Shown one piece after another: positions 10,018 through 59,917 of a stretch of 64,000 nucleotides of DNA. Under the pieces are notes generated by a model. It made no database searches and was not told the origin of the DNA. It saw only the letters and a program-made list of their open reading frames with translations. Every line of letters starts with the position of its first letter. Within the stretch, counting starts at the first letter, position 1. This DNA comes from an uncultured Algibacter sp. (lineage in GTDB: Bacteria > Bacteroidota > Bacteroidia > Flavobacteriales > Flavobacteriaceae), in the NCBI GenBank assembly GCA_947502405.1, contig CANMZT010000014.1, forward strand, positions 7,309 through 71,308, read 5' to 3'. The translations under genes were made by a program, and so were the position numbers.

Positions 10018-12201
10018 TTAAAACTTGAGTGTAGCTCCTACTAAAAAGTTAGTAGTGGCTTGTGGATAATATCCAGCAAAATAGCCTGTAGTAGTTCCCG
10101 TAGGGCTTGTATTATCATCAAAATCAAACGACCCAAAGTAACCGTTAGACACATATTTCTTATTAAAAATATTGTTTACCAATCCAGATAACACAATAGA
10201 CTTAAACAGTTTATTTGGCTTAATTTCGTAATTAATATTGAAATCGTTAACAAAATAACTTTCTAATAAAGATTCTTCATTATCAGTGTTACCCATATAT
10301 TGCTCACCCACATATTTACTTAATAATGATAGTTGCAATCGTTCCGCAGGGAAAAAATTAAGTGCATTACCGATTACTAAATCTGGAGAAAATGAAATAT
10401 TAGTATCTCCTAAGTTAACAACCTCACCATTTATTGAAGATGAAAAGTCTTTATTTTTATTACTACTTAAAGCAATATTTGTTGATGTACTAAAGTATTT
10501 ACTAAATTGAATGTTAGCATCAACTTCTAAACCTAGTCTATAACTTTTACCACTTGTAGCTCTTAATGGACTTCCCACATCATCTAACTCGCCTGTTAAC
10601 ACCAATTGATTTTGATAAAACATATAATAGATATTGGTATTAATACTGGCCTTTTCACTATTGTAACGCCATCCTAACTCAATATCATTTAAAGTTTCAT
10701 TTTCAGTTACACCGCCTTCAAAATCATCACGATTAGGTTCCCTATTAGCTCTTGCATAAGATGCATAAAAACTATTAAAATCGCAATGCTTGTATGTTAA
10801 ACCGACTTTTGGGTTGAAAAAACTAAAATCAGCATCCGTTACAAACTCATCTCTATCCGAGTTCAACCCATTCGTCTTATAACTCACAAAACGACCTTGT
10901 AAATCAATAAAACCTGTGATTTTTTCTGCTAATTTGAAAGTGGCTTTTGAAAATACACTAAAATCATTTTTTGTAGCATCTCCATCGTAGTAACGGTCTC
11001 TGATTTCAGTATTAGCAGTCAAGTCACTTCCCCAAATAACCTCTCCAAAATGGTCTCCCGTATAAGAACTCCATGAAATTCCAGAAATAATTTCCAACGC
11101 ATTTTCTTTATAAGTTACATTTGCATTTAAGACATAAAAATCATTATCTAACCACCTACGAACAATAACATCCGAATTATATTCAATCAAATTATTAAAA
11201 TCCTCTGCTGATTCTTCTGGCTTGTATTGCTCAAAATACCCTTTACCTTTTGTGTAGTTTAATCCTAAGTTGGTAGACCAATTATTATCAAAACGCTCGT
11301 TCCAATGTAATTGATAGTGGTCTTGCCAATAATTATCGGTTTCATTTTCATAAGTGTACGGGTTTTGACGACGATCCTCTTTTAGTTGTTCTGCCGTTAA
11401 ACCAAACCAAGATTGATAGGTTTGTTCTGTATTACCAAAAGTTAAAGCTTTAATTAAGGTGTTATCATCTTTATAAACACCTTGTATGAAATACGACTTT
11501 AAATCTGTAAACGCTCTATCTACATAGCCATCAGAATAAATATTAGAGAAACGACCAGAGATTTCGAAATGATCATTTAATAATCCTGTACTAACTTTTA
11601 CAGTATGTTTACGAGTGTTAAAACTACCAAAACTATTAGCAATTTCTGCTGAAGCTTCCTTAGAAAATGCATCTGTTAATAAATTGATACTAGCACCAAA
11701 AGCACCTGAACCATTTGTAGATGTACCAACACCACGCTGTAATTGTAAACTTTCAGTTGACGAGGCAAAATCCCCCAAATTCACCCAAAATGTACCTTGA
11801 CTTTCTGGATCGTTATAAGGTATACCGTTTATGGTAACATTTACTCGTGTTGCATCTGTACCACGAACTCTAATACCAGTGTAACCTACACCTGCACCAG
11901 CATCACTAGTAGTTACAACAGAAGGTAAGAAGTTTAACAAAACAGGAATATCCTGTCCTAAATTACGTTTTGCAAGTTCCTCTTTTGAAACGTTTGAATG
12001 CGTAATTGGAGAATCTGCATCCACTCTAACTGCATTTACTAAAACTTCATCTAGTTTTTCAGTTTTAGTTGAATCTTGTACTTTTTGATTTTGCTGTGCA
12101 TTAATTCCAATTGTAACAAGCAGAATTAAAGCAGCTACAAACTTTTTTTGATGAGATTCCTGCCTTCGCAGGAATGACAAATTTTTGAATAAATTTTTCA
12201 T
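10018..12201 (-). CDS. TonB-dependent receptor, probably for thiamine
   Basis: Signal peptide, plug motif (RVRG.D..R.NVTING.PYND), C-terminal GATLKF; TPP riboswitch upstream. Confidence 0.9.
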   Translation of the reverse strand: MKNLFKNLSFLRRQESHQKKFVAALILLVTIGINAQQNQKVQDSTKTEKLDEVLVNAVRVDADSPITHSNVSKEELAKRNLGQDIPVLLNFLPSVVTTSDAGAGVGYTGIRVRGTDATRVNVTINGIPYNDPESQGTFWVNLGDFASSTESLQLQRGVGTSTNGSGAFGASINLLTDAFSKEASAEIANSFGSFNTRKHTVKVSTGLLNDHFEISGRFSNIYSDGYVDRAFTDLKSYFIQGVYKDDNTLIKALTFGNTEQTYQSWFGLTAEQLKEDRRQNPYTYENETDNYWQDHYQLHWNERFDNNWSTNLGLNYTKGKGYFEQYKPEESAEDFNNLIEYNSDVIVRRWLDNDFYVLNANVTYKENALEIISGISWSSYTGDHFGEVIWGSDLTANTEIRDRYYDGDATKNDFSVFSKATFKLAEKITGFIDLQGRFVSYKTNGLNSDRDEFVTDADFSFFNPKVGLTYKHCDFNSFYASYARANREPNRDDFEGGVTENETLNDIELGWRYNSEKASINTNIYYMFYQNQLVLTGELDDVGSPLRATSGKSYRLGLEVDANIQFSKYFSTSTNIALSSNKNKDFSSSINGEVVNLGDTNISFSPDLVIGNALNFFPAERLQLSLLSKYVGEQYMGNTDNEESLLESYFVNDFNINYEIKPNKLFKSIVLSGLVNNIFNKKYVSNGYFGSFDFDDNTSPTGTTTGYFAGYYPQATTNFLVGATLKF
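12153..12179 (-). repeat. TGTC-tagged REP-like palindrome inside the receptor CDS
   Basis: TGTCATTCCTGCGAAGGCAGGAATCTC, read in frame as LSFLRRQES. Confidence 0.85.
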
Positions 12202-12340: not shown

Positions 12341-12362
12341 AAAAATGTCTACTAGACATTTT
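12341..12362 (-). terminator. Candidate terminator in the TPP riboswitch expression platform
   Basis: AAAATGTC-TAGTA-GACATTTTT on the minus strand, just downstream of the aptamer. Confidence 0.4.
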
Positions 12363-12371
12363 CTAAACGTT

Positions 12372-12442
12372 CGCTTTCCTAAACAGCATTACCTGTTCTA
12401 GGTTCAATGGGTATGATCTCAGCCGATAATAGGCACCCCTTT
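12372..12442 (-). promoter_or_regulatory. TPP (THI-box) riboswitch aptamer
   Basis: Minus strand GGGGTGCC..GGCTGAGATCATACCCATTGAACCTAGAACAGGTAATGCTGTTTAGGAAAG contains the TPP hallmarks CTGAGA, ATACCC, GAACCT and TAATGC. Confidence 0.93.
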
Positions 12443-12455
12443 TTTGAGAACGGTG

Positions 12456-12503: not shown

Positions 12504-12911
12504 TTAATCCAAATTAGGCTTTTTTCTATTAGCCTTCTTTTCAGACAGTTTGCGTTTACTATTTAGTCGTTTTTTAACTACTGCTTTTGGAACTTTAGTT
12601 GGTTTACGCTTTTTGGGAACTTTCAAAGCTTCTTTAATCAAACCCAAAAACCTCTTAATAACTAGGTCTTTATTTTTGTGCTGACTTCTACTTTCATCAC
12701 ACTGTAAAATCAATACTCCTTCTTTTGTTAATCGATTTTGAAGTTTATCTAAAAGACGTTCCTTTTGTTCAACATTAAGTATAAGCGACTCTGATATATT
12801 AAATGACAATTCTACTTTTGAAGAGACCTTATTAACATGCTGCCCTCCACTTCCGGAGCTTCTAACAGCTTTAAAAGTTAACTCTTGTAATATGGCTTCT
12901 TCATCAAACAT
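12504..12911 (-). CDS. arfB: Alternative ribosome rescue peptidyl-tRNA hydrolase ArfB
   Basis: RSSGSGGQHVNKV (GGQ), RSQHKNK, basic tail. Confidence 0.95.
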   Translation of the reverse strand: MFDEEAILQELTFKAVRSSGSGGQHVNKVSSKVELSFNISESLILNVEQKERLLDKLQNRLTKEGVLILQCDESRSQHKNKDLVIKRFLGLIKEALKVPKKRKPTKVPKAVVKKRLNSKRKLSEKKANRKKPNLD

Positions 12912-14461
12912 TAAGATACTTGATGCACAGGTTTCAATAAGTCGTTTACTGTTTTTACAGGATTAAAAGTTTCCAAGGGTACTTCTACAAAAATAGAATT
13001 CCAGTATGCCATACTACCGTTCCACAATCCAGGAAGCTCAAGAGCTTGAATATCTACTCCATTTTGTGTTTTAGTGGTTATAAAAGCGGCTTCTGGGTCA
13101 ACAAACTTTGTTAAATCAAATTTTTCTCCTTTATAATTTTTTACGCCACAAACTAAATCTGTAGGATTAAAATGTGTGGCCTTATATACTATACCTTGCT
13201 GATTCTTTTTACCAAAATTAATTTGAGCAAATTCAACTATTTGTAATGATATTTTACCCTCATCATCTTTTACCCAAAATGGACCTCCACCAGGTTCTCC
13301 TTGGTTTTTTACCATACCACAAACTCGAATAGGTCTATCAAATTTTTCTTTTAAATAACTTATTTTTTCCTCAGAGCAAAAGGCTTCAAAATCTGCCACA
13401 ACTGGCACATTTAATCTATAACGTAAAAACAAAGCCATCACTTTAAAATCAGCATCATCTAAATAACCTTCATCGAGCTTTTTCAAATAAGTAAAAACTT
13501 TCTCTTGAGCTTCTAAAAGAACACCAGCCAATAATTTCTTATAGTTTGAAACTTCAATATTTTTATTTGCAACAACTATATTGTCTATATTTTTAATAAA
13601 AATTAAGTCGTTATCTAAATCGTTTAAATTCTCTAGTAGCGCACCATGGCCAGCTGGTCTGAATAAAATTGAACCATCTTCATTTCTAAACACCTTATCA
13701 TCAAGAGTTAAAGCAACTGTTTCGGTTGCTTCTTTTTGAAAAGAATAAGACACATTGAATTTTGTATTTGTTTGGTCTTCTATCGGCTCTACAACAGCAC
13801 TAAACTCTTTTTTAAAATAGAGATGATGTTTTTCTGAAACTGTGAAATGTAGATTTGATTTACCATTGGAAGATGCATACAAGGTAGATTCAAATAAATG
13901 CTCTTCAAAGGCTGTTTTTACTTGCGCTCCGTACTTATGAAAAGGCAATAAACCTTTTGGTAAAAAGCTATAGTTTAGCCCATCAGCATCTAGCATGGTT
14001 TTTACAAATAACATTTGCTTTTCTTCGTTAGTTAAAGCATCATAATTTGGTGTTCCTTGACGAATCACTGATTGCACTTCATTATAAAATGGAAACTGTT
14101 CTAATTTTTCAAAAAAGGTTTCAATTAGAGCTTCATTTTTTCGCTCTGCATATTTTTTAACATTCTCTTTTGAGGGATTAAAATGTTGTAAAAACTGAAA
14201 CAAAAACTTAAACATACGTGTTGCTGCTCCTGAAGCAGGAACAAACTTCACGATTGATAAATTATCCTTTTTATTGTCATAAAGATTTATCAACTCTTGA
14301 GTTTCACCTTTATCATAGCTTTCTATACCTTTTCCTATGGTAGCAGCTGCCACAAGATCAGAAAATGACATGCCGTTTTTTAATCTGGACACTTGTGCGT
14401 TAACCTGATCTGGAGTTATTCCTTTACTTTTTATTTGCTTAATATCTTTCTCTGTAAACAT
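12911..14461 (-). CDS. DUF4301 family protein (nucleotidyltransferase-like)
   Basis: KFVPASGAATRMFK, RPAGHGAL, KNIDN, GEPGGGPFW, THFNP.DLVC, LELPGLWNGSM, FNPVKTVNDLL. Confidence 0.85.
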   Translation of the reverse strand: MFTEKDIKQIKSKGITPDQVNAQVSRLKNGMSFSDLVAAATIGKGIESYDKGETQELINLYDNKKDNLSIVKFVPASGAATRMFKFLFQFLQHFNPSKENVKKYAERKNEALIETFFEKLEQFPFYNEVQSVIRQGTPNYDALTNEEKQMLFVKTMLDADGLNYSFLPKGLLPFHKYGAQVKTAFEEHLFESTLYASSNGKSNLHFTVSEKHHLYFKKEFSAVVEPIEDQTNTKFNVSYSFQKEATETVALTLDDKVFRNEDGSILFRPAGHGALLENLNDLDNDLIFIKNIDNIVVANKNIEVSNYKKLLAGVLLEAQEKVFTYLKKLDEGYLDDADFKVMALFLRYRLNVPVVADFEAFCSEEKISYLKEKFDRPIRVCGMVKNQGEPGGGPFWVKDDEGKISLQIVEFAQINFGKKNQQGIVYKATHFNPTDLVCGVKNYKGEKFDLTKFVDPEAAFITTKTQNGVDIQALELPGLWNGSMAYWNSIFVEVPLETFNPVKTVNDLLKPVHQVS

Positions 14462-14462
14462 C

Positions 14463-15032
14463 TTATTCTTTGGGGTTTAATAATTTGTCAATATGTTTTA
14501 CTGCTGTTTCTAAACGCGTTTTCTTATCACCTTTTAAAAGCACAAAAGGTTTTTTATATTTTAATAATGCTTCTTGGAAAGCATCAAACATTTCTTTTCT
14601 ATGCTCAGGTTTATCTCTTAAATCATCTGCTTCCCAAGGCGTATCAATATAGGTTAAAAAATACAAATCGTAAGAATTCTCTAAAGCATGCTTCTCTAGT
14701 GTTGGGTCGCAACTTCCTAAGTAATAAGCTTCAGAATAAACCTTGGTTTCTAACAAATCCGTATCACAAATCAGCACTGAATCGGTTTTTTGAGCCAATT
14801 CATTTTCCAATTTCATTTGTCCTTCTGCTATAGGTAATAAATCTTCTGGCTCACAGGTTTTTCGCTCATTATTCCATTTGTTTTGAAGATATTCACGAGC
14901 ATATTCTGGTACCCAAACAGAGTTATAATACCTAGCCAATTGTCTTGACAAAGTAGTTTTTCCTGTAGATTCGGGACCAAACAAAACCACTTTTATGCAG
15001 TTTGCAGGTTGTTGTTTATATTTTTCTTCCAT
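14463..15032 (-). CDS. Stand-alone NadR-type P-loop kinase (AAA_28)
   Basis: GPESTGKTTL Walker A, VPEYAREYL, CDTD, PWEADDLRD. Confidence 0.88.
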   Translation of the reverse strand: MEEKYKQQPANCIKVVLFGPESTGKTTLSRQLARYYNSVWVPEYAREYLQNKWNNERKTCEPEDLLPIAEGQMKLENELAQKTDSVLICDTDLLETKVYSEAYYLGSCDPTLEKHALENSYDLYFLTYIDTPWEADDLRDKPEHRKEMFDAFQEALLKYKKPFVLLKGDKKTRLETAVKHIDKLLNPKE

Positions 15033-15625
15033 GCTATGTAGCCAAAAATGGCAATAAAAGTGAATCCTAAATATTGTAAACTCGTAAACGTAAAACCTTT
15101 ATAAAAGTATAACGGCACGGAAATAATGTCTCCAATAATCCAAAAAATCCAATTTTCGAGTTTACGTCTTGCCATAAGCCACATACCAACAAAAAATATT
15201 GCTGTAGTTATGGTATCTATATAGGCTACCCAACTCGTCCATTTATCAAAACTTTGGTAAACTAAATAAACAAATAAGAGTGTTGCTAAAAATATAGCTA
15301 TACTTATCTTTTTTTCGTTGAATGTTGTTTTGGATATTGGGGTAACATGCTCATCATCAATTTTCTTCGTCCAAATGTACCAACCATAAACACTCATCAC
15401 AAAGTAGTATGCGTTTATCATCATATCTCCCAACAACTCCCACTTAAGCAGTAAATACACAAAAATAACGGTACTTATCATACCCGTTGGAAACACAAAA
15501 ACATTGTTCTGCTTAGAGAACCAAACCGATAAAAATCCAAAAAAAACAGCAACTATTTCTAAAACAATATCAATCGTTTCATATTCTGAATATTGCCCAA
15601 AGAAAAACTCAAAAATGAGGTTCAT
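14993..15625 (-). CDS. pnuC: PnuC/PnuT family vitamin transporter (nicotinamide riboside or thiamine)
   Basis: Seven-TM pattern; FPTG, YGWYIW, D..TT, WLMARRKLENWIFWI..D. Confidence 0.92.
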   Translation of the reverse strand: MNLIFEFFFGQYSEYETIDIVLEIVAVFFGFLSVWFSKQNNVFVFPTGMISTVIFVYLLLKWELLGDMMINAYYFVMSVYGWYIWTKKIDDEHVTPISKTTFNEKKISIAIFLATLLFVYLVYQSFDKWTSWVAYIDTITTAIFFVGMWLMARRKLENWIFWIIGDIISVPLYFYKGFTFTSLQYLGFTFIAIFGYIAWKKNINNNLQTA

Positions 15626-15869
15626 AATCGTATCTGTCTGATTTTACAATTTTCATGTAGAGTAAACCGCGTTCAATAAGCTCGAAAGCTTCTTTTATTT
15701 CAGATGTTAATACTTGCATAACCTCATCATAATCACCATAAACTTGTGTGCTTAATGGGTTTTCAAGCACTTTTAATTTAGATGCTCTTAACTTTTTAAT
15801 GAAATGAATAATAGCTGGTTCAAAATCATCTTGCAATGGTGTTAGTGTTAATTCTACTGATATTTTCAT
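15609..15869 (-). CDS. Thiamine-binding protein family (YkoF/MTH1187-like)
   Basis: SVELTLTPL...NPLSTQVYGDYDEVM ferredoxin-like pattern. Confidence 0.75.
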   Translation of the reverse strand: MKISVELTLTPLQDDFEPAIIHFIKKLRASKLKVLENPLSTQVYGDYDEVMQVLTSEIKEAFELIERGLLYMKIVKSDRYDYEPHF

Positions 15870-15952: not shown

Positions 15953-16678
15953 TTACTTTAGTAATTCATCAAAAAACGATTCATCTTCTTCAAAGGCGGT
16001 ACCTATAACTACAATATCTGCTCCTGCTTCAAAAGCATTTTCAATCTGCAATTTAGTCCTTAAACCACCTCCTATAATTAACGGAATCTGTAACTCATTT
16101 TTTACAGCTTTAATAATTTCTTTAGTTAAACCGTATTTTGCACCGCTTCCTGCTTCCAAATATATTAGCTTCATACCTAAAAGCTGTCCTGCTTTGGCAG
16201 TATCTAATATGTGTTGGACATTATTTCTTGATATAGGTTTTGTTTCAGTAACTTGTTCTACTGCTGAAATTTTACCACTTTCAATTAAAATATATCCTGT
16301 TGGGATTACCTCTAAAGACGAATCCTTTAACTTGGAAACTGCTCTTACATGCTTACCAATTAAATACTCAGGATTTCTACCAGAAAGCAAAGACAAAAAT
16401 AACAATCCATCTGCCTTATTCGTAATTTGAGTAACATCTCCAGGAAATAAAATTACTGGTAACTTAGTATGCTTTTTAATCTCAGAAACCAAATCTTCTG
16501 TTAAACCTTCATTCACAGAGCTCCCGCCAACAAATATATGTGTTGCGATAGATTTGTTTACTTTATTAATAAAATACAATGCTTTATCAACAGAAAACTT
16601 ATCGGGGTCAATTAAAATGGCAAGTAATTTTTCGCCTTTACTGATACTATCTTGTATGTTATTATAAATAGCATCCAT
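15953..16678 (-). CDS. Geranylgeranylglyceryl/heptaprenylglyceryl phosphate synthase (PcrB/GGGPS family)
   Basis: LIDPDK, FVGGS, LFPG, LSGRNPEYLIG, YLEAGSGA, GGGLR; ATG 16678 overlaps the upstream stop (TAATG). Confidence 0.92.
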   Translation of the reverse strand: MDAIYNNIQDSISKGEKLLAILIDPDKFSVDKALYFINKVNKSIATHIFVGGSSVNEGLTEDLVSEIKKHTKLPVILFPGDVTQITNKADGLLFLSLLSGRNPEYLIGKHVRAVSKLKDSSLEVIPTGYILIESGKISAVEQVTETKPISRNNVQHILDTAKAGQLLGMKLIYLEAGSGAKYGLTKEIIKAVKNELQIPLIIGGGLRTKLQIENAFEAGADIVVIGTAFEEDESFFDELLK

Positions 16679-17304
16679 TAGGCTATGGCATAAGCACATG
16701 TAAATCCTTCAAACTCTAAAAAATGAATACTATAACGGTATTTTTTACCTTCATAATCAATCCATGCAATAGTATCATTATCAATAATTGAAAATGGAAT
16801 TACTAAACAGTGCTGTTTAAAACTCAATCCTGGTGTAGCAAAAAGTTTATATAATGATTCTTTTACACACCAAATAGTTGTTAGTTTTTTAACATAGTCA
16901 GAATCCCCTACCTCTAAGTAATCAAACTCATAATCAATAAACTTATGTGCTATCACAGAAATTTTTTCACGCTGCTTTTCTATATCTATACCAACTACTA
17001 AATCACTAACAATAACTGCCGAAAAATTAAATGAATGCGTAATAGAAATTTGCTTGCCATCTTTTAAATGGGGTTTACCGTTTTCATCATAAAACAAATC
17101 AGAATCAGTATACCCAAACTCGTGCAATAAATGACGAACACTTAAAAAACCACGCTGATGTAATTCACTTTTCATGCCCAAAACCCGATTTAAAGCAATA
17201 GGTTTTAAATTAACCTTTGCCATTAAATCCTCGTAAGATTCTGTAATCTTCCAAATTTTAACAGTAGTTTGTGAATTTGGTGTAATGGTTTTATAAAGTG
17301 GCAT
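16678..17304 (-). CDS. 4'-phosphopantetheinyl transferase family protein
   Basis: GKP.L....ISITHS, VGIDIE, WCVKESLYK. Confidence 0.9.
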   Translation of the reverse strand: MPLYKTITPNSQTTVKIWKITESYEDLMAKVNLKPIALNRVLGMKSELHQRGFLSVRHLLHEFGYTDSDLFYDENGKPHLKDGKQISITHSFNFSAVIVSDLVVGIDIEKQREKISVIAHKFIDYEFDYLEVGDSDYVKKLTTIWCVKESLYKLFATPGLSFKQHCLVIPFSIIDNDTIAWIDYEGKKYRYSIHFLEFEGFTCAYAIA

Positions 17305-30328: not shown

Positions 30329-30411
30329 GGGCGTTACCCACAAGGGGTCGGGCTTTCCGTTATATCTTTTTCTCGTGCCTCAAAAAAGGATGCCACTTCA
30401 ATCCCTAACGC
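30329..30411 (-). repeat. Structured repeat, copy C (Flavo-1-like)
   Basis: Minus strand GCGTTAGGGATTGAAGTGGCATCCTTTTTTGAGGCACGAGAAAAAGATATAACGGAAAGCCCGACCCCTTGTGGGTAACGCCC. Confidence 0.8.
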
Positions 30412-30496
30412 GGGCTCATCAGCTAGCCATTTGACTAAACAAAACAATATCATTTTTTTACAAACGTTAAGTCTATAAGAATTAAAACAATTCCTA

Positions 30497-58613: not shown

Positions 58614-58874
58614 ATGAAAAGCATTCATTGTATGGTGTTTGGGCACAATTTTAAAGTTACCAGACAAGTTACTTATCATGTTCAAGAATACACTTGTAAA
58701 AACTGTAAAAAAGAACTCACTACAAACAGTAACGGAAACTTAATAGAACTTACACCAAAATTTAAAGAGATTAATGACGTTCTTGAGCGAATTCATCACA
58801 AACGTTTAGTAAGAATGAACAAGAGAAAAAAGCTCAGCAGAACTCAACCAAAACCTAAGTTAATGATTGCTTAG
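58614..58874 (+). CDS. Small zinc-finger-like protein (DUF1660-like), paralogue 2
   Basis: CMVFGH...YTCKNC; long blocks identical to paralogue 1. Confidence 0.7.
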   Translation: MKSIHCMVFGHNFKVTRQVTYHVQEYTCKNCKKELTTNSNGNLIELTPKFKEINDVLERIHHKRLVRMNKRKKLSRTQPKPKLMIA

Positions 58875-59917
58875 TCATTAAAATTCTTCCAACCTTGAGC
58901 TTTGATGGGTATTCTCGTATCTGCTCTAGTCACAAGATGTAATCCTTCTTTTTCTTCCTTTATATAACCAATAACTGAAAGGTTAGGATTTGCTTTTATT
59001 TTTGGAAAATCATCTTGAGAAACTGTAAATAAAAGTTCGTAATCTTCACCTCCATTTAAAGCCACTGTAGTACTATCAATTTTAAATTCTTCACAGGTAG
59101 AAATAACTTGTGGGTCTAATGGAATTTTATTTTCGTACAAATCACAACCTACCTTACTCTGCTTACATAGATGTATTATTTCTGAAGATAAGCCATCACT
59201 AACATCAATCATGGACGTGGGTTTAACTTCTAAATCTGTTAATAATTTAACAATATCCTTTCTCGCTTCAGGTTTAAGCTGTCTTTCAACAATATAAGTA
59301 TAAGGTTCTAAATCTGGTTGACTATTAGGATTTACTTTATAAACCTCTTTTTCACGCTCTAAAACTTGCAAACCCATGTAAGCCGCTCCTAAATCTCCAG
59401 ATACTACTAATAAATCATTAGGTTTTGCACCACTTCTATATACTTCATTTTCAGGTTTCACCTCTCCAATAGCAGTGACAGAAATAAGCAATCCTTTATT
59501 TGAAGATGTGGTATCGCCTCCAACCACATCAATAGCATAAATACTTGCAGCCGTTTCAATTCCAGCATATAAATCTTCTAAAGCTTCCAAAGGAAATCTA
59601 TTAGATACTGCAATTGAAACTGTTACCTGTGTTGCTTTAGCATTCATCGCATAAACATCAGATAAATTTACAACTATCGCTTTATAGCCCAAATGCTTTA
59701 AAGGCATATAACTTAAATCAAAATGCACACCTTCAACTAATAAATCAGTAGACACAACAATGCGTTTATCTTCAAAATTTAAAACTGCAGCGTCATCACC
59801 AATCCCTTTAATTGTTGATTTTTGCTTTATTTCAAAATTTTTTGTCAAATGTTCTATTAATCCAAATTCACCTAAATCACTTAACTGTGTACTTTGCTGG
59901 TTTTTATCTTCTATCAT
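58871..59917 (-). CDS. thiL: Thiamine-monophosphate kinase
   Basis: GEFGLI, GIGDDAAV, DLLVEGVHF, NLSDVYAM, IDVSDGL, GGEDYELLFT. Confidence 0.97.
   Translation of the reverse strand: MIEDKNQQSTQLSDLGEFGLIEHLTKNFEIKQKSTIKGIGDDAAVLNFEDKRIVVSTDLLVEGVHFDLSYMPLKHLGYKAIVVNLSDVYAMNAKATQVTVSIAVSNRFPLEALEDLYAGIETAASIYAIDVVGGDTTSSNKGLLISVTAIGEVKPENEVYRSGAKPNDLLVVSGDLGAAYMGLQVLEREKEVYKVNPNSQPDLEPYTYIVERQLKPEARKDIVKLLTDLEVKPTSMIDVSDGLSSEIIHLCKQSKVGCDLYENKIPLDPQVISTCEEFKIDSTTVALNGGEDYELLFTVSQDDFPKIKANPNLSVIGYIKEEKEGLHLVTRADTRIPIKAQGWKNFND

Follow-up and report, generated by a model that had tools for sequence, protein, structure and literature searches.

DUF4301 of an uncultured Algibacter as a diverged, candidate UDP-sugar pyrophosphorylase encoded beside a putative thiamine uptake cassette

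A 64,000-nucleotide stretch of the genome of an uncultured Algibacter sp. (assembly GCA_947502405.1, contig CANMZT010000014.1, positions 7,309 to 71,308, forward strand), which we refer to as the window, encodes a protein of the DUF4301 family directly beside a P-loop kinase that resembles the kinase domain of NadR. What does the DUF4301 protein do, and is its work tied to that of the kinase? The original prediction for this locus held that DUF4301 is a nucleotidyltransferase of the UDP-sugar pyrophosphorylase kind, which could either supply a missing nicotinamide mononucleotide (NMN) adenylyltransferase step or adenylate thiamine phosphates. The family is large: at 50% identity it forms about 2,800 clusters. 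Our literature searches returned nothing on the function of DUF4301, whose name occurs only in one unrelated metaproteome paper, and nothing for its Pfam entry, PF14134.

The gene (P0001; positions 12911 to 14461, minus strand) is a single open reading frame for a protein of 516 amino acids; the plus strand over the same interval is closed by many stop codons. A scan for promoters and terminators was uninformative, as its counts equaled those in shuffled sequence. PF14134 covers P0001 from end to end (E = 9.9e-212), and no NCBIfam model matched. The sole other Pfam match is to UDPGP (PF01704; residues 406 to 510, E = 0.0013), at 18.0 bits against a gathering threshold of 22 bits, and no match was found in Pfam to PF01467, the HxGH-type Rossmann nucleotidyltransferases. 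DUF4301 can thus be regarded as a remote homologue of UDPGP that stands outside PF01704 as Pfam defines that family. When P0001 and a DUF4301 profile were searched against PDB sequences, the only matches were to UDP-glucose pyrophosphorylases (UGPases) and one UDP-N-acetylglucosamine pyrophosphorylase, with N-I-D-N and F-x-P-V-K-T-x-x-D-L-L aligning residue for residue. A profile-profile alignment by hhalign against 21 canonical bacterial UDPGP proteins extended over 206 columns (E = 8.2e-5) and placed F-x-Q, P-x-G-H-G, N-x-D-N, G-G, E-x-A-Q, F-N, a conserved Glu and F-x-P-V-K-T-x-x-D-L-L in this order, with an identical DUF4301 residue at each UDPGP-invariant catalytic position in the aligned region.

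An AlphaFold2 model of P0001 (predicted local distance difference test score, 93.1; predicted template-modeling score, 0.92) consists of an N-terminal domain and a central GT-A-like pyrophosphorylase core. When the model was compared with the PDB by Foldseek, the check that the original prediction had proposed, the top 37 matches were all UGPase, UDP-N-acetylglucosamine pyrophosphorylase (UAP1/AGX) or UDP-sugar pyrophosphorylase (USP), with E values of 3.8e-11 to 3e-6; they came from human, plant or fungal UGPase and UAP1/AGX and from Leishmania USP. The best of them were eukaryote-type UGPases (human UGP2, 3r2w, 3r3i and 4r7p; Arabidopsis, 2icy; yeast, 2i5k), at E values of 4e-11 to 1e-8, while the highest TM-scores, 0.46 to 0.50, belonged to USP (Leishmania major 3oh2 and 8tgs; plant USP) and UAP1/AGX (1jvd, 2yqc, 6g9w and 3oc9). 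Bacterial enzymes of the RmlA type ranked after the UDPGP-type structures, at E values near 2e-3. Identity to the UDPGP-type structures is 10 to 18%, with TM-scores of 0.37 to 0.50. Fold search, profile alignment and the subthreshold UDPGP match agree with the nucleotidyltransferase assignment made in the original prediction, and together they place DUF4301, by prediction, among the GT-A-like nucleotidyltransferases of the UGPase/AGX class, with intact catalytic residues.

The three motifs on which that assignment had drawn are all present in P0001 and vary little or not at all across the family, which we sampled in alignments of 56 closer homologues (down to 44% identity) and 22 phylum-wide homologues (down to 31%). 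The proposed P-x-G-H/N-G motif, F-R-P-A-G-H-G-A-L (residues 267 to 275; positions 13637 to 13663, minus strand, as for all motifs below), is invariant, and its R-P-A-G-H-G aligns with C-P-P-G-H-G of canonical UDPGP proteins and P-N-G-H-G of 3oc9. The proposed N-x-D-N motif, F-I-K-N-I-D-N (residues 288 to 294; positions 13580 to 13600), is likewise invariant and aligns with F-V-S-N-x-D-N-L of UGPases, its K-N-I-D-N falling on S-N-x-D-N. The third motif, the nucleotide-binding loop K-F-V-P-A-S-G-A-A-T-R-M-F-K (KFVPASGAATRMFK; residues 72 to 85; positions 14207 to 14248), is the presumed counterpart of K-L-N-G-G-L-G-T-S-M-G of UGPases with an altered glycine pattern, P-A-S-G-A-A-T-R-M standing where these enzymes have N-G-G-L-G-T-S-M. 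Measured against (L/K)-x-G-G-x-G-T-(R/S)-(L/M)-G, it keeps T-R-M and one glycine and lacks the G-G pair; the equivalence of the two loops rests on fold position and motif resemblance, as the hhalign alignment stops short of the loop. Within DUF4301 the loop is invariant. Invariant in the 56 homologues are P75, A76, S77, G78, A79, A80, R82, M83 and F84 in the loop, together with G271, H272, G273, K290, N291, D293 and N294, and most of these residues are invariant or more than 90% conserved in the phylum-wide set too.

The remaining UDPGP motifs follow in order. In S-Y-S-F-Q-K (residues 238 to 243; positions 13733 to 13750), Q242 aligns with the glutamine of F-x-Q and is invariant in both alignments; presumably it touches the base, as the F-x-Q glutamine does in published UGPase/AGX structures. 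A glycine-rich strand-loop, V-C-G-M-V-K-N-x-G-E-P-G-G-G-P-F-W-V (residues 380 to 397; positions 13271 to 13324), aligns with K-K-G-G-H-L of UDPGP, G391 to G393 and P394 being invariant or nearly so. L-Q-I-V-E-F-A-Q-I (residues 406 to 414; positions 13220 to 13246) aligns with L-R-E-S-A-Q and V-E-I-A-Q of UGPases, and T-H-F-N-P (residues 429 to 433; positions 13163 to 13177) aligns with Y-F-N-T-N, with F431, N432 and P433 invariant in the 22 phylum-wide homologues. Finally, F-N-P-V-K-T-V-N-D-L-L (residues 499 to 509; positions 12935 to 12967), which holds the F-x-P-V-K motif with its catalytic lysine and lies 7 residues before the end of the protein, aligns with R-F-A-P-V-K-T-T-N-D-L-L of UDPGP. 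K503 is at least 90% conserved, the lone exception being a degenerate paralogue. In this second DUF4301 copy (L060:8001-9272, minus strand; G275:C42), a protein of 424 amino acids at 31% identity, the N-terminal nucleotide loop is missing, and N-I-D-N and P-V-K have become N-I-G-N and P-V-E; with these changes, it is probably inactive. Genes for YqcI/YcgG and DUF1989 proteins adjoin it.

DUF4301 resembles eukaryote-type UGPases in the order of its motifs, in its overall length and in the histidine of P-x-G-H-G. UAP enzymes differ in having P-x-G-N-G and E-Y-S-E where DUF4301 carries the UGPase versions. Apart from its low identity and TM-scores, DUF4301 departs from UGPases in three respects. 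It carries an inserted helical segment about 75 residues long (approximately 298 to 375). The UDPGP profile continues for about 110 C-terminal columns to which nothing in DUF4301 corresponds, and because DUF4301 ends shortly after the F-x-P-V-K motif, 13 residues beyond K503, it is without the C-terminal left-handed beta-helix/oligomerization domain of UGPases. Moreover, many invariant residues are specific to DUF4301 and lack a UGPase counterpart, among them PGLWNG(S/A)M, a cluster of H175, H188 and H205, and R376 and R379.

From this fold and from catalytic residues shared with enzymes that make UDP-glucose, DUF4301 very probably activates a phosphorylated sugar. The positions shared with UDPGP are ones that we take, from published UGPase/AGX structures, to contact phosphates, metal and hexose. 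Since the UDPGP-invariant positions have identical counterparts in DUF4301, an active pyrophosphorylase on a sugar-1-phosphate-like acceptor is the expectation. We infer activity, nucleotide and acceptor alike, and DUF4301 would be a catalytically competent NTP:X-1-phosphate nucleotidyltransferase, a very diverged and remodeled bacterial branch of the eukaryote-type UDPGP superfamily. Its N-terminal loop (K72 through R82 to K85) and the histidine of P-x-G-H-G would hold the nucleoside triphosphate (NTP), as in UGPase; Asp293 of N-x-D-N and Lys503 of F-x-P-V-K would position Mg2+ and the phosphates; and the acceptor phosphate would attack the alpha-phosphate of the NTP with release of pyrophosphate. 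For the acceptor we favor a hexose-1-phosphate, which would make DUF4301 a UTP:hexose-1-phosphate uridylyltransferase yielding UDP-glucose and/or UDP-galactose. We give this specific assignment about an even chance.

The content of the genome suggests a concrete task for DUF4301. A galactose locus (G000:C15:62029-66017; L166:4030-8018) comprises a sodium:solute symporter gene, galM and galK, and the genome encodes a GalE with 45% identity to the Escherichia coli enzyme. No GalT, GalU or canonical UDPGP was found in this genome, which leaves galactose-1-phosphate with no known fate and UDP-hexose with no known source; DUF4301 could fill this gap beside an intact galM-galK and GalE. Across a sample of 301 Bacteroidota genomes, GalU (TIGR01099) is convincing in only 2 or 3 and canonical UDPGP is present in 1, and Bacteroides thetaiotaomicron, used as a control, has DUF4301 and neither GalT nor GalU. 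Searches of the literature on galactose and UDP-glucose enzymes of Bacteroides turned up no assignment. An article of 2026 gives the galactose route of B. thetaiotaomicron as BT_0370-0372 plus BT_0623, with no uridylyltransferase returned by a term search of its text (PMC13634575), and the galactose pathway of Algoriphagus has been noted as "incomplete with GalT missing" (PMC5507952).

A few DUF4301 neighbors outside the Flavobacteriaceae point the same way. In L142, galK lies 50 bp upstream of DUF4301 on the same strand; in three genera of family f9 (L043, L047 and L048), GalE is encoded divergently 0.5 to 1.8 kb from DUF4301; in L052, Ugd is encoded 1.7 kb away; and in a Capnocytophaga locus (L129), a GH65 phosphorylase gene overlaps DUF4301 on its upstream side. 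These few informative neighbors all concern hexose-1-phosphates or UDP-glucose and UDP-galactose. In L047 and L048, DUF4301 is also immediately preceded by a small Hpt-domain gene. USP provides a precedent within the UDPGP fold, as it turns Gal-1-P made by galactokinase into UDP-Gal without GalT, and by analogy we propose for DUF4301 the role that USP has on Gal-1-P.

Other observations weigh against UDP-hexose formation. DUF4301 is found in only 50 of the 301 Bacteroidota genomes although nearly all of them lack GalU, and for this reason it is not the general UDP-glucose source of the phylum. GalT is present in 5 of 16 DUF4301-positive and 5 of 17 DUF4301-negative genomes, so the two show no association, a point on which the parallel with USP is also weaker. 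Genes for GalE, Ugd and GalK are only modestly enriched around DUF4301, and the pattern is in part post hoc. Most DUF4301 neighbors outside the Flavobacteriaceae are unrelated to sugars, and none of them recurs beyond single families; about 20 adjacent genes have unrelated functions, for example helicase, SpoU, carboxyltransferases, LigT, CDF, sigma-54 activators, histidine kinase and NifU. With its altered loop, its helical insertion and its missing C-terminal domain, DUF4301 quite possibly has a different acceptor.

Narrower versions of the proposal were tried and rejected. Replacement of GalT as a general rule looked attractive in the first five genomes, where GalT occurred only in two that lacked DUF4301, and disappeared once 28 more were added. 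A supply of UDP-glucose for a eukaryote-type (GT3) glycogen synthase does not apply here, as this genome lacks GT3 and relies on GlgC in its place; of the 301 genomes, 14 encode GT3 (9 of them DUF4301-positive), none of 22 Flavobacteriaceae does, and in none of the 9 genomes with both are the two genes adjacent. GalU and canonical UDPGP, considered as alternates in DUF4301-negative Bacteroidota, are both nearly absent, leaving no complementarity to be read. P0272, a 521-amino-acid protein without a Pfam match encoded after galK, was considered as a hidden GalT, but it has a lipoprotein-like hydrophobic leader and is probably a secreted lipoprotein.

The alternative that survives best keeps the chemistry and changes the acceptor to another sugar-1-phosphate or phosphorylated metabolite used for an envelope or storage precursor, such as MurNAc-1-P, GlcNAc-1-P, beta-glucose-1-P, a pentose-1-P or a phospho-alcohol. 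The evidence from fold and motifs applies to it equally, and it would sit well with the family-specific invariant residues and the 75-residue insertion, with the patchy distribution of DUF4301 and with the missing complementarity to GalT. The overlapping gene in Capnocytophaga is also of interest here, since GH65 yields beta-glucose-1-P. On the other side, the hexose-contacting residues of UGPase all have identical counterparts in DUF4301, the nearby GalK, GalE and Ugd genes are all UDP-glucose/UDP-galactose genes, and the step from Gal-1-P to UDP-Gal is a concrete gap in the genome. We regard a different acceptor of this kind as possible and UDP-hexose formation as the better-placed of the two.

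The remaining alternatives arise from the neighborhood of DUF4301 in the window, where all of the genes described here lie on the minus strand. Upstream of it are genes for a 4'-phosphopantetheinyl transferase (PPTase; 16678 to 17304), a member of the GGGP synthase (GGGPS) family (15953 to 16699), an 86-amino-acid homologue of the MTH1187/YkoF-type "thiamine-binding protein" (15609 to 15869; PF01910, E = 2e-7), a PnuC-like facilitator of the Pnu family (210 amino acids; 14993 to 15625) and the kinase (189 amino acids; 14463 to 15032), an AAA_28 protein matched by Pfam and NCBIfam whose stop codon lies 1 nucleotide before the DUF4301 start. The 86-amino-acid protein has a weak match to 2ibo, its gene overlaps the transporter gene, and its position is conserved across the Flavobacteriaceae. 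The facilitator is the only one in the genome and passes the NCBIfam PnuC model; we infer from its context that it is PnuT, a thiamine transporter. Downstream of DUF4301 are ArfB, a ribosome-rescue peptidyl-tRNA hydrolase (12504 to 12911; NF006718, 138 bits, above cutoff), a diverged thiamine pyrophosphate (TPP) riboswitch (12359 to 12450; RF00059, 37 bits, E = 2.5e-4) and a TonB-dependent outer membrane receptor with plug and beta-barrel domains (10018 to 12201), which probably takes thiamine or a thiamine precursor. Matches to RF00059 recur at the same site, between ArfB and the receptor, in three other genera (L062:10001-10091, L063:10006-10096 and L066:7361-7528); overall these elements score 35 to 40 bits, and standard annotation would miss the variant because the gathering score is 54.3.

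Many genera share a conserved block in which AHCY is followed by PPTase-GGGPS-ThiBP-Pnu-kinase-DUF4301-ArfB, the riboswitch in some form and the receptor. Since the block holds unrelated genes (AHCY, PPTase, GGGPS and ArfB), its synteny says little by itself, and ArfB is a functionally unrelated member of it. Algibacter pectinivorans has, beside the same block, a canonical TPP riboswitch (L077:12593-12690, plus strand; 71 bits) downstream of the TonB receptor and before a gene for a protein of 619 amino acids, and the two form a second thiamine-regulated unit. Elsewhere in the window, at 30342 to 30420 (minus strand), is a Flavo-1 RNA (RF01705; 51.9 bits, above the gathering score), of which Flavobacterium L055 and L056 carry further copies.

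The kinase proved to be, as the original prediction had it, without the adenylyltransferase domain of NadR. In the PDB it is closest to NadR kinase domains (E = 2e-16 to 4e-9), its match to the NadR models is confined to their kinase part (positions 162 to 320 of TIGR01526), and it falls far under the NadR cutoffs (110 against 341 bits for TIGR01526; 73 against 201 bits for NF005988). Its context concerns thiamine. In a genome that is 99.98% complete, ThiC, ThiE, ThiD, ThiM and ThiK were not found by tblastn with E. coli proteins, nor was thiamine pyrophosphokinase (TPK), while ThiL is encoded inside the window (58871 to 59917, minus strand). The host is, by these predictions, a thiamine auxotroph, and because it has ThiL only, something must make thiamine monophosphate from imported thiamine. 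Among 141 Flavobacteriaceae genomes, sampled at one per genus, the kinase has an orthologue in 134 and TPK is found in 8; TPK occurs in 5 of the 7 kinase-less genera and in 3 of the 134 kinase-bearing ones (Fisher P = 3e-6, with the related genomes not being independent), and one Flavobacterium without the kinase also carries TPK. Given this complementarity, the PnuC-like protein and the kinase look like a system for thiamine uptake and trapping, in which the AAA_28 protein would probably be a non-orthologous thiamine kinase. A second AAA_28 kinase of 179 amino acids is encoded elsewhere in the genome (G000:C6:196624-197118; L074:1489-2028), immediately ahead of a gene for a DEAD-box helicase, and is too unlike the window kinase to be detected at E = 1e-8.

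This arrangement recalls the Bacteroides-type thiamine operon, with its TPP riboswitch, TonB receptor, PnuT and TPK, in the neighbors of DUF4301 only: the host is auxotrophic, and its genes for a Pnu facilitator, a trapping kinase and a receptor preceded by a TPP-riboswitch-like element lie in one cluster. It differs in having a NadR-kinase-like protein instead of TPK, a diverged riboswitch that precedes only the receptor, the additional small thiamine-binding-protein homologue, and DUF4301 and ArfB in between, which are not known parts of such operons. In our proposal, DUF4301 would be a stand-alone housekeeping enzyme that lies in an old syntenic block of the Flavobacteriaceae beside a thiamine uptake-and-trap cassette, the latter made up of the small thiamine-binding-protein homologue, the Pnu facilitator and the putative thiamine kinase.

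The distribution of DUF4301 bears on whether it belongs to this cassette. It is present in 121 of the 141 Flavobacteriaceae genera. Sixteen of the 134 kinase-bearing genera lack it, many with streamlined genomes of 1.4 to 2.2 Mb, and three genera have DUF4301 without the kinase. Natural deletions are clean in both directions: DUF4301 alone is missing from PnuC-kinase-ArfB in G055, G191 and G223, and the kinase alone is missing from PnuC-DUF4301-ArfB in G187, G203 and G263. Beyond the family, about 20 of the 31 non-Flavobacteriaceae genomes with DUF4301 have no kinase homologue, whole families of Bacteroidota carry the kinase without DUF4301, and B. thetaiotaomicron has DUF4301 and no AAA_28 match. 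Around DUF4301 at about 36 loci outside the Flavobacteriaceae we found no Pnu transporter, no window-type kinase and no thiamine gene, and a search beside DUF4301 in 14 other lineages returned no riboswitch at E ≤ 0.01. DUF4301 and the kinase are phyletically independent, and the co-occurrence expected of an obligate kinase-nucleotidyltransferase pair, NadR-like or FKP-like, is not observed.

The best argument for coupling is recurrent fusion. Almost all Flavobacteriaceae with the two genes carry them side by side, and in-frame kinase::DUF4301 fusion proteins of about 700 amino acids exist. On a DUF4301 tree, the fused state requires at least three to four changes, which include two gains (one in Flavobacterium, one in Flagellimonas plus Croceivirga) and, within Flavobacterium, subsequent losses of the kinase portion. 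Fusion probably followed from the 1-nucleotide spacing of the genes, and the fact that DUF4301 was kept where the kinase half was later lost argues for selection on DUF4301 in its own right. Wide adjacency and a fusion that arose at least twice could nevertheless reflect real coupling, and this counts against UDP-hexose formation as the function; we consider it rather unlikely that they mean nucleotidyl transfer onto thiamine mono- or diphosphate or NMN.

The first form that such coupling might take is nucleotidylation of thiamine mono- or diphosphate, the former made by the kinase, to give adenosine- or uridine-thiamine di- or triphosphate. In favor of this, the kinase most likely acts on thiamine, its adjacency and fusions with DUF4301 would be explained, and DUF4301 without the kinase would not be fatal, as thiamine phosphates are universal; moreover, we know of no gene for a thiamine-diphosphate adenylyltransferase in any organism. 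This second role offered by the original prediction nevertheless fared poorly. ThiL completes the salvage without DUF4301, and the two genes are lost independently, 16 genera keeping the kinase alone and several Flavobacterium keeping DUF4301 after the kinase has gone. In addition, the 14 loci from other families have no TPP riboswitch or thiamine gene near DUF4301, the riboswitch in the window controls the downstream receptor and not DUF4301, the residues on the acceptor side are those of hexose-binding UGPases, and the same block contains unrelated genes. We regard adenylation or uridylation of thiamine phosphates as improbable.

The second form is an NMN (or nicotinic acid mononucleotide, NaMN) adenylyltransferase, of a fold unlike that of NadR, NadD or NadM, that would complete a PnuC/ribosylnicotinamide kinase route to NAD. 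Much of the locus imitates that logic: the closest solved relatives of the kinase are NadR kinase domains, the transporter passes the PnuC model, and a Pnu facilitator, a P-loop kinase and a nucleotidyltransferase lie together, the last two being the pairing of NadR and naturally fused in some lineages. The details run the other way. NadR has an HxGH Rossmann domain (PF01467) N-terminal to its kinase, whereas DUF4301, with its GT-A/UDPGP fold, is C-terminal in the fusions. The context and the complementarity between kinase and TPK speak for thiamine, not nicotinamide riboside; DUF4301 and the kinase are lost independently, B. thetaiotaomicron having only the former; and the acceptor pocket residues are UGPase-like in a fold that, to our knowledge, no known NMN adenylyltransferase has.

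Nor does NAD synthesis need such an enzyme here. NMN reaches NAD through NaMN and nicotinic acid adenine dinucleotide (NaAD) by an established route with a deamidase and NadD. The genome encodes NadA for de novo synthesis, an adenylyltransferase of the NadD type and an NMN deamidase domain of the CinA/PncC type, and because these are present no NMN adenylyltransferase step is missing; its three PF01467 genes (C9:50143, C20:7982 and C9:58687), one of them NadD-sized, all lie away from the locus. Because the adjoining genes look like a vitamin B1 cassette that works without DUF4301, DUF4301 is unlikely to be a missing NAD step, and we consider this role, with which the original prediction had begun, very improbable. 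The vitamin-phosphate readings taken together have only a small chance of being right. Weakest of all, a catalytically dead or purely regulatory pyrophosphorylase relic is scarcely credible for P0001, as the degenerate paralogue shows that inactive derivatives exist but the catalytic positions are intact and invariant in P0001 and in all other aligned members (31 to 90% identity).

UDP-hexose formation thus remains our preferred function for DUF4301, which is, on present evidence, a strongly diverged form of a known kind of enzyme and not a demonstrated new pathway. New in this analysis are the deletions in both directions, the finding that DUF4301 and the kinase occur independently at genus level, the complementarity of the kinase and TPK, the argument from thiamine auxotrophy, the negative tests concerning GalT and glycogen, and the GalK, GalE and Ugd neighbors. 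For the kinase, comparative support is fairly strong that a NadR-kinase-like thiamine kinase replaces TPK and ThiK in the Flavobacteriaceae. If DUF4301 did act on a vitamin phosphate, this would be a new biochemical activity with its first gene, and the first nonsugar acceptor for the UDPGP fold. GalU is almost universally absent from the Bacteroidota, many of which, including this organism and B. thetaiotaomicron, also lack GalT, and metabolic reconstructions of organisms that degrade polysaccharides in the gut and the sea have a real gap where UDP-glucose is made and galactose-1-phosphate is processed. With its carriage in 50 of 301 genomes, DUF4301 can account for only part of the UDP-glucose gap of the phylum; if it does fill that part, the annotation and the models of these organisms would be improved.

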